A stretch of DNA of 60,998 nt, the filler included, from Platydemus manokwari (taxonomy: Eukaryota), in the NCBI GenBank assembly GCA_037951405.1. It is 6 parts of 6 records of this genome, joined end to end, with 100 filler letters (N's around TTAATTAATTAA, not from the genome) between each part and the next. Parts side by side here need not be neighbours in the genome. Positions count along the whole stretch, not along the records: positions 30,147 to 39,439 come from JBBMOY011270762.1; 5 more parts are not named here. One strand, given 5' to 3'. A program made the position numbers and the translations under genes. The notes under the pieces are model-generated. The model saw only the letters and a list, made by a program, of their open reading frames with translations. It did no database searches and was not told the DNA's origin. Positions 32,480 through 34,800 of the stretch are shown here, in pieces. Position 1 is the stretch's first letter, and each line of letters begins with the position of its first letter.

Positions 32480-33984
32480 GTTGGATTTGGAATATTATCC
32501 ATTGATCTTTTAGATAAAATTCAATATTATATCGGAGCACAACAATAAACTGGATCTGGTTGGATGTTTCAGAATATTACAAAAGTAGAAATTCATTTAA
32601 ACAAATTTTTCAATCAATAGTTGCTGTAACATGTATTAGTTTGCGTTTACAAGGAATGGAATTTTAAATATTAAACAAAATTATAATAAATGTTTTATTT
32701 GGTCAATCTTAGCAATTTTAGATGCAACTTTTGATCATTTAAATAAAGTATCAAAATATAATGAATTAAATTTCAATGCAAAAAAATTTCCCATTAATTA
32801 AGAAGGGATAAAGAATTTTAAAAATCAAAATTATATCTAATTCAATGTGTTTGAACTTGATCAAGATCAAATTTTGTTTCAACTGTTTCATTTTCATTAT
32901 AATTCTCGATGTTGTAATTTATTATTGAATGAAAACATTATGTACTGTGTAAAAATATGAACACATTTGCATTTCGAAATGGACATTGTCAATTTATGTG
33001 TCTAAGATGTTTGAATAAATATTATTCTTAAAATACTCATAAATACCACACTGATGAATGCCACAATCACGTTCCTGTTAAACCAACATTTAGAAAGATT
33101 AAAAAATTTTAACTTATAACTAATATCATCAAAAGAATAAAGTTCCGTTTGTAATTTAAGCTAACTTTGAAACATGTCATGAACCAGTAAAAATAGAGGT
33201 ATTAGAGGAGAGCAATACTAAATATTTATTTGATCTAAAACCTTCATCTGTAGGAATTTATGTTAAAAGTTATTATAAATCAAGATATACAAAATTGTAT
33301 GGACGGAGAAATTATAATTAAACAGTTTATTATTAAAATTGAAAAAAAAGAACGAATGTTAACGTGATAGAGAGAAAAAGTGGAGAACACAAATTCAAAT
33401 GGAAACACAAATTTAATAATGAGTGTAGAAGATGAATTAAATTTTTCAGAATCTTTAAACTGTTATTATTGCGGTATTCATTATACAGAAGAAACAGGAA
33501 AAGTATTTATGATTTTCATCTTTTTTTGAATGAAGAAACTAAATTAACAGTATAGTATTAAAAAAATAATAATAAATGCTAATGAAAAGTATATTTGTTA
33601 TCATCACAAAAACATTCGATTTTTATATTAATTGAGATTTAAGTAGTTTGGATATCAATCGATAAAATGGGAAAAATTTTTAATGAAGACTTAAGAAAAT
33701 GTAAAATATTATATTAATTTAATTTAAAACTTTAGAAACAAATATTTCCATCTGATTATGTTAAAGGAAATACTTTTCAAGAAATAATTGATTTATTAAA
33801 TATGAATGAATTTCCAACCATTGAGATTAATAGGAATAGAAATATCAACAGGAAAACTGTATTATATTGACTTAAATTTTGATAATTTACAAGAATACAT
33901 GTTATACTATATGGAGTTGGATGTTTCGGTATTAGTGATTATTTGAAAAATATGAGAAATATGTGTATAGATTATTATAGTGAT
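32480..33984 (+). mobile_element. Polinton/Maverick protein-primed DNA polymerase B, decayed N-terminal/exonuclease part
   Basis: Ordered motifs GSGWMFQNITKVEIHLN (32552), GILNIKQNYNKCFIWSILAIL (~32660-32720), ELNFNAKKFPI, HYVLCKNMN, CLRCLN, CYYCG (33461) and FDNLQEYMLYYMELDV...NMRNMCIDYY (~33880-33978) are typical of Polinton/adintovirus-type pPolB. Many stops and deletions. Confidence 0.8.
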
Positions 33985-34800
33985 TAGGTAACTTATAATG
34001 CTCCAGTTTTTTTAAAACAGAATAGTAAAATATACTTTAGAAACATAACATATATTTATAGTCATTGGAATTATGATTTGAATTTATAACCAAAGACTGA
34101 TTCCCCTATGGAGTGTAGCTTTCCTAGAAATGAATTATTTGTTTAATATGCCACTGGTTGGAATAAAATTTATAGAGCAATAAGAAATAAAATCAATAGA
34201 CAAATATATGGAGTAAGAACGAAATTAGGATTTTTTATGTAATGGAAGACCATTCTTTATTAAATATTGAAGGAGAAGAAGTAAAACCTAAAGATGTAGT
34301 AAAACGTAAATTACTCCTTCATAATTAGTTTAACTTTAAAGAAGAAATAATTCCATTAACAAAACAAGAAAAATTAGATTACGCTTGTAGTATTACTGCA
34401 GAAACTGAAGTAGGAAAATTAGCTTATGTACTTGGATTTTTCATGGGAGGCAGTAGTTCGGAAATATATCATTCTAAATATTGATTCAAGTAATCATGGT
34501 ATTTATGTAATCAAGATTTATTTTTATTAGAAAGAATAAAAATATTTTGTGAAAATTTTTATCTGGTTAATATACCGTTTAAAATATGGAATCCTTAATA
34601 ATATCTATCATAACAAAAAATGGAATCCTCAATAATATCTATCATAACAAAAAGTAAAAATCTGTCTCGTAACATACAATGTTTTTACACAAAAAATAAA
34701 GAAAAAGTAATTCCATGATGAAACATTAAATTCTTGATATGATATAAGTAAAGGGTTCTATATTGGTTTTATGTAGCATATAGATATAAAAAAATAATCA
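33985..34800 (+). mobile_element. Fossil intein with LAGLIDADG homing endonuclease, C-terminal splicing region missing
   Basis: YSD|*VTYNAPVFLKQNSKI (block A); TGWNKIYRAIRNKINRQIYGVRTKLG-fs-YVMEDHSLLNIEGEEVKPKD...LLH (block B); AYVLGFFMGGSS (block C); SWYLCNQDLFLLERIK; FYTKNKEKVIP..LNS (block D region); KGFYIGF..AY (block E). Collinear with the Mimivirus PolB intein as I recall it. Confidence 0.85.
34587..34654 (+). repeat. 34-bp tandem duplication inside the endonuclease region
   Basis: tggaatccttaataatatctatcataacaaaaaa followed by tggaatcctcaataatatctatcataacaaaaag. Confidence 0.9.

Follow-up and report, generated by a model that had tools for sequence, protein, structure and literature searches.

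The Polinton contig and its intein

The DNA analyzed (hereafter the window) is a stretch of 60,998 nucleotides from the Platydemus manokwari assembly GCA_037951405.1, in which positions 30147–39439 are the 9.3-kb contig JBBMOY011270762.1 (C1270762) that holds the polymerase and intein described below. The assembly is AT-rich, comprises 911 Mb in 1,989,153 contigs, and yields 70 Wnt matches above cut-off, which mark it as animal; other stretches of the window encode host genes, viz., a lipid-droplet hydrolase (21934–22608), CDV3 (27507–28310), and INTS2 (exons, 40536–44913). On the plus strand of C1270762, 32507–33975 encodes the upstream part of a protein-primed PolB (pPolB), recognized by tblastn with P0157 (residues 44–635 over 32507–33978), by a pPolB profile (32547–32954, E=1e-12), and by 77–79% DNA identity to the sister contig C533218. 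Within it, 33461–33520 reads as a remnant of the Cys-rich, endonuclease-VII-like insert of the exonuclease region (CYYCG...); this piece itself has no Pfam match, and the homolog P0157 shows the same CYYCG stretch with a PF02945 match at residues 411–452, just below the cut-off. The initial annotation had placed the host enzyme in the protein-primed class, and this is borne out by an intein-free sister frame (P0156, 357 residues), which passes the Pfam PF03175 cut-off (35.2 versus 25.8 bits) and is scored at 2e-91 by the pPolB profile. Its 76 public homologs are Polinton-type pPolBs (best 44% identical) whose labels, where present, are PF03175 or PF02945; 63 of the 76 have an uninterrupted DTDS and none shows an intein junction.

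Further along the contig lie a second pPolB fragment, inverted and without an intein in its motif C region (35084–35340, minus strand; translation and blastn to sister copies), the C-terminal fragment of a Polinton packaging ATPase (36888–37052, minus; translation and blastn to the ATPase loci L156–L164), and a decayed A32-type packaging ATPase with Walker A and B remnants that ends at the contig end (39062–39439, plus). The last has 154 genome matches, and its sister copies (74–80% identity) pass the Pfam Pox_A32 cut-off; an A32-type ATPase and a pPolB, the linkage by which Polintons/Mavericks are recognized, are thus joined on one 9.3-kb contig. The translation of 38162–38398 (minus) has no Pfam or PHROG match, and by its motif is likely the C-terminal part of a putative Polinton integrase. 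At its start the contig carries a fragment of a ubiquitin-like ORF (30147–30380, minus; Pfam ubiquitin, E=2.5e-14).

Directly behind the polymerase part, 33985–34805 (plus) is a decayed LAGLIDADG intein of the pol-c type, matched by residues 2–265 of the P0006 intein (tblastn, E=3e-17) and 77% identical in DNA to the sister contig C1233197 over 33973–34805. A profile built from 58 public inteins detects it at 33988–34233 (E=1.7e-11) and 34239–34733 (E=7e-25), and finds nothing outside 33988–34800 across the 486 translated tiles of the window. Block B lies near 34242–34253, the first LAGLIDADG motif at 34419–34451, and the second near 34755–34790; block B, both LAGLIDADG motifs (LAYVLGFFMG and WFFIGFCGADG), and block F align to P0006, and C1233197 covers nearly the whole intein. 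The window copy ends at about 34805 without its C-terminal part (approximately 90 residues, blocks F and G), and has stops in 13 of 267 aligned codons (3/85 and 10/182 in its two aligned pieces). Its first codon is a stop, the corresponding residue being Ser in four sister copies and the junction being shifted in C1233197; block B reads TEDH in C1233197 and C1487473, MEDH in the window, and is changed in three other copies. Against Pfam and NCBIfam the main-family pieces give nothing above cut-off and are weak at best (TIGR01445, E=0.17); C1199456 matches LAGLIDADG_3 just below the cut-off (E=2.9e-4), and a genome fragment matches both LAGLIDADG_3 and Hom_end at E=3e-4. Two of the intein pieces drew no match in word-index protein searches, a weak form of evidence.

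Two stretches downstream of the truncated intein are of note. The 282 bases at 34810–35091, directly behind it, are 96% identical to the end of C1233197 (L002:1–281), the inteins themselves being 77% identical, and are likely a younger repeat present in both contigs, or else mark a common later event; at 35092–35155 a read depth of 6,741 in run X1 indicates a short high-copy repeat.

Insertion into motif C and the deletion upstream of it

The plus-strand frame from 33940 reads, by translation and with no change of frame, as YLKNMRNMCIDYYSD, a stop, and VTYNAPVFLKQ, and the pattern Y.D.VT..[TA]P has this single match in the six frames of the window; the unbroken run from polymerase to intein that had been noted initially is thus real. 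The Y-S-D at 33976–33984 corresponds, as the sister copies show, to the N-extein half of the catalytic motif C, i.e., YxD↓TDS (the arrow marking the insertion point). Empty sites in the sister copies read KYKIHY(S/T)D↓TDSLF, and occupied ones ...HY(S/N)(D/Y)↓SVTYDTP or HFGD↓SVTEDT. The N-terminal junction is found in six contigs (the window, C533218, C1233197, C1487473, C483332, and C169722) and the C-terminal one in two, as IVEN↓TDSLFIEF in C1631959 and in a decayed form in C436178; an exact-pattern search returned no further C-terminal junctions. Of the arrangement expected in intact copies, YxD↓S...(H/K)N↓TDS, the form YxD↓S...N↓TDS is there; the penultimate residue at the sole clear C-terminal junction is Glu rather than His, most relatives having Lys or His. 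No intact copy of intein plus polymerase was found, every polymerase-linked copy being broken.

Between the exonuclease region and motif C the window has lost about 1.0–1.15 kb, including motifs A and B, at a junction placed at 33973–33978. A genome search with 33300–34800 gave 46 matches, many of which end at query positions 677–685 or begin at 674–675, i.e., at this junction. Contig C533218 matches 33563–33976 and 33974–34271 (blastn) with approximately 1 kb in between, an interval that includes motif A (as YDANSLY) and the region of motif B, so that the spacing from MRN to motif C is 1,032 nt there as against 24 nt in the window. The missing DNA amounts to 1,008 nt relative to C533218 and to 1,103 and 1,143 nt relative to two intein-free copies, in line with the loss of roughly 1 kb at the tattat junction proposed at the outset; the accompanying premise, that MRNMCIDY normally precedes motif C by several hundred residues, also agrees with the public homologs, where the same stretch spans 292–381 residues in the 42 of 76 in which both marks were found. 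The junction is no artifact of the window's assembly because run X1, assembled separately, yields a 671-base contig that runs across it and covers 33851–34521 with one mismatch; run X1 may be the window's own source, and this contig therefore does not represent a second individual.

As motifs A and B were deleted from between the two blocks in the window, its YSD constitutes the N-terminal half of motif C. Taken at face value, the window could instead suggest that the intein occupies a new site immediately behind the exonuclease region, or that two unrelated fragments were juxtaposed by chance; the sister copies refute both readings, to which we give a negligible probability. In C533218 these two blocks are still separated by the approximately 1 kb that holds motifs A and B, and five other contigs repeat the linkage of polymerase and intein, which had been set as a test. 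The loss of this DNA represents ordinary decay, probably through end joining at a short AT-rich overlap; the two ends share 3–4 nt in DNA that is 76% AT, which is too short to serve as proof of a repair pathway.

The in-frame insertion lacking in allelic copies, the N-terminal Ser, the TxxH of block B, and the C-terminal Asn followed by Thr are features of a splicing intein, and suggest that it likely once spliced itself out. In an active element Ser1, the block B Thr and His, the terminal Asn, and Thr+1 would act in the order known from established intein chemistry (an acyl shift at Ser1 aided by block B, attack by Thr+1, and cyclization of Asn) and would restore YxDTDS, without which the polymerase would have no active site. 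The LAGLIDADG domain would in turn cleave sites that lack the intein, and the intein would spread as the breaks were repaired from an occupied copy; an element present many times in the nucleus would provide a large number of such targets.

Relatives of the intein and its possible donor

A profile of 11 genome pieces gave 857 matches in 1.84 billion proteins, and among the best 150 of these, 125 have a (Y/H)(G/S)D↓S junction, the remainder being fragments or inteins at a D(Q/A/S)D site. The suggestion that the Polinton polymerase was invaded at the same catalytic site as RNA-primed PolBs is thus supported by the YxD↓TDS site itself and by the prevalence of that junction among the relatives. 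The long proteins among 28 scanned intein hosts are RNA-primed PolBs (Pfam), and the pPolB profile (control P0156 at 2e-91) finds no protein-primed PolB among the best 150 of the 857. Scans with pPolB-style junction patterns returned one and two viral loci and three metagenome loci, and a protein scan 17 viral loci; none of the 21 scored loci (L099–L117 and L143–L145, with L098 being the same place as L145 by coordinates) matches the pPolB profile. Close relatives at a D(Q/A/S)D↓S site (P0052, P0056, P0075, P0099, P0100, P0106, P0120, P0126, and P0127) represent the same intein family at a non-allelic site; their hosts are RYG...-motif proteins, presumably type II topoisomerases.

The best public relatives are pol-c inteins of RNA-primed PolBs from giant viruses and T4-like phages, approximately 33% identical; C1233197 aligns to such inteins over 333 residues at 31–34% identity (E=1e-46). 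Four PolB inteins (P0006, P0012, P0027, and P0057) reach about 33% identity over the whole intein, and that of P0012 has the same YSD↓S...N↓TDS junction; unlike the Polinton polymerase their hosts are RNA-primed, and none is a supported sister in the tree. The hosts of P0006 and P0012 are T4-like gp43-type polymerases (PHROG 262, phage and PDB matches), and several of the related viral loci carry giant-virus MAG labels. In a quick-search tree with 58 public inteins, in which the fragments are under half filled, the genome's pieces form one group (support 94, not starred) with no starred sister. With regard to the donor, the best match, the T4-like P0006, and other PolB inteins tie at about 33%; the RNA-primed PolB of a large DNA virus is the likely source. 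Searching the genome with P0006 revealed no endogenous RNA-primed viral donor, as outside the intein it matches only the host Pol delta and one 264-base contig. The genome-piece profile retrieved no solved intein structure; the P0006 intein itself weakly matches PI-SceI (E=0.017), PI-PkoII (0.03), and NEQ068 (0.055) in the PDB.

The pol-c site is described as YGD↓TDS in the PolB inteins of Mimivirus R322 and at archaeal position III, in a report that judges direct homing between distant PolBs unlikely and favors stepwise transfer (PMC549080). The Polinton intein resembles these in its YxD↓TDS site, first Ser, last Asn, Thr+1, block B Thr and His, LAGLIDADG motifs, and length of about 350–360 residues, and differs from what is described there in its protein-primed host and its many decayed chromosomal copies accompanied by empty sister sites. 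Polinton pPolB2s have been reported with HNH or VSR nuclease inserts (PMC10748475; PMC11071308), which were suggested to stem from intein invasions (PMC11071308); the polymerases are of the same group, and the nuclease is inserted in their exonuclease region. The inserts are described in those accounts as nuclease domains, whereas here a canonical splicing-type LAGLIDADG intein lies in motif C (the main text of PMC10748475 nowhere uses the word 'intein'). In Klebsormidium, Tetrabaena, and a labyrinthulid, nuclear scaffolds carry viral-like polymerases with inteins (PMC10710043, where 'polinton' does not occur), and these likewise show an intein that reached nuclear DNA within an endogenous viral polymerase; those described are in algal and protist hosts, in contrast to a Polinton in an animal assembly. 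In section 5 of a survey (PMC5784728) the nuclear inteins listed are those of fungi, algae, and protists, and the viral ones those of nucleocytoplasmic large DNA viruses, with none in animals or Polintons, and the relevant passages of PMC12220804, PMC3671162, PMC9939771, PMC13768754, and PMC4104785 contain no pPolB intein. We found no prior literature record of an intein in a Polinton polymerase, although supplementary intein tables, subscription journals, or Repbase reports could hold one. What is found is therefore a known intein allele of giant-virus and archaeal polymerases in a host class for which we found no earlier record, preserved as fossil copies in an animal assembly. The pol-c allele is thereby extended from RNA-primed to protein-primed polymerases, two classes with little in common beyond the six residues of motif C; this implies that a Polinton and a large DNA virus (or phage DNA) met in one cell, provides a concrete case for the proposal that intein invasion affects Polinton polymerases, and shows a route for intein DNA into animal chromosomes. 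As the copies are dead, no host function is implied.

Occupied and empty copies and the history of the intein

Intein sequence is carried by 15 contigs, of which nine constitute the main family (75–86% DNA identity to C1233197), two are more diverged (C169722 and C1595221), and four are short contigs with further intein variants and no flanking polymerase, viz., C1199456 (L130), C278589 (L133), C1477842 (L139), and C404529 (L125). A second variant (C1199456, C278589, and C1477842) is about 40–57% identical where pieces can be aligned, and two of the four short contigs have pieces of it that are free of stops over 142 and 85 residues. Two occupied copies have been rearranged: that in C483332 (L022, 930–2105) has undergone separate internal deletions and has part of an intein displaced to a position upstream of the junction, on a contig that also has a 604-codon ORF (3646–5457, minus strand), and that in C169722 (L033, 40–627) is cut off after about 41 intein residues by an opposite-strand ORF. 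The latter ORF resembles a Tc1/IS630-type transposase. An anchor at motif C could be set in 47 of the 48 loci tried; 42 of the 47 are empty, a ratio that does not equal an allele frequency as most loci came from an empty-site query; the intein-free YxDTDS alleles anticipated for this genome accordingly exist.

The reading that we hold with considerable confidence is that of a dead chromosomal Polinton, whose pPolB carried a pol-c-type LAGLIDADG intein in motif C. The intein likely derives from a large DNA virus, namely from its RNA-primed PolB, and the loss of about 1 kb from the polymerase likely followed integration. In a tree of 190 nt of extein upstream of the site (40 rows, four of them occupied, after six long-branch or rearranged rows, viz., L001, L043, L036, L041, L035, and L038, were dropped), the occupied copies are rejected as a single clade (AU p=1.9e-7) and need at least two changes, with empty copies adjoining both occupied branches and the empty C1730376 falling inside the main occupied subfamily (support 91/85). 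The main-family intein copies show no third-position excess of differences (88/101/77; 140/116/76), as opposed to comparisons between polymerase subfamilies, where the excess is clear (384/239/531, from non-independent pairs); the polymerase-linked copies are thus decaying neutrally, and near-identical copies were probably inserted in a burst before they decayed. We envisage a near-identical intein-bearing master that would have given rise to a burst of at least nine copies. Sister Polintons sharing the nucleus would have offered empty motif C sites, which the endonuclease probably cleaved, bringing the intein into a second subfamily; the case for that subfamily consists of one 872-base contig with 41 intein residues.

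The empty alleles had been put forward as the signature of a homing polymorphism. Occupied and empty alleles do coexist, but presence and absence alone are no proof of homing, as repeated precise loss fits the tree too. A single ancient gain followed by vertical descent and repeated precise loss, with no homing among Polintons in this host, departs from the preferred reading solely in how it accounts for presence and absence, and is a serious competitor to which we give somewhat less than an even chance. Intein divergence tracks that of the flanking extein in all six pairs (e.g., 89 versus 87% and 76 versus 70% identity), so that there is no sign of a recent jump between subfamilies, and the grouping of the genome's pieces noted above would also follow from one gain; conversely, the loss would have to be exact in each empty-site clade between the two occupied branches, and C1730376 is empty within the main occupied subfamily. 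As to presence and absence, we marginally favor homing, given that every loss would need to be precise, and set it a little above even and one old gain with repeated loss a little below. That the occupied element never spliced, and was a non-autonomous passenger amplified by the polymerase of empty-site relatives, would suit the broken state and neutral decay of the copies, and more than 150 polymerase matches offer possible sources of the enzyme; this is nonetheless unlikely given the exact in-frame position between Asp and Thr, the splicing residues kept in several copies, and the second variant, whose divergence and stop-free stretches point to long persistence under selection. Contaminating protist or symbiont DNA, which would place no intein in animal DNA, is less probable still: the assembly is highly fragmented and some of its contigs differ in composition (42% GC), and no animal-specific gene was seen on any intein-bearing contig, yet the intein contigs have 23–28% GC as do the host stretches of the window, the genome holds more than 150 decayed copies of the family, and the intein-bearing copies sit nested amid retroelement remnants and beside the 604-codon ORF. 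Going beyond the preferred reading, we tentatively entertain, at somewhat under even probability, that a giant-virus or phage pol-c intein entered a Polinton pPolB, underwent splicing in animal cells, gave rise to two or more variants, and moved by homing between subfamilies in the germ-line nucleus. It would then be the first intein of the canonical kind in any pPolB, and a metazoan mobile element would have sustained a live intein cycle.

One Polinton subfamily (L059, L069, L071, and L076) has a motif C of the form YGD-C-DS instead of YxD-T-DS, and this change from Thr to Cys at the intein's +1 position might represent an altered homing site.
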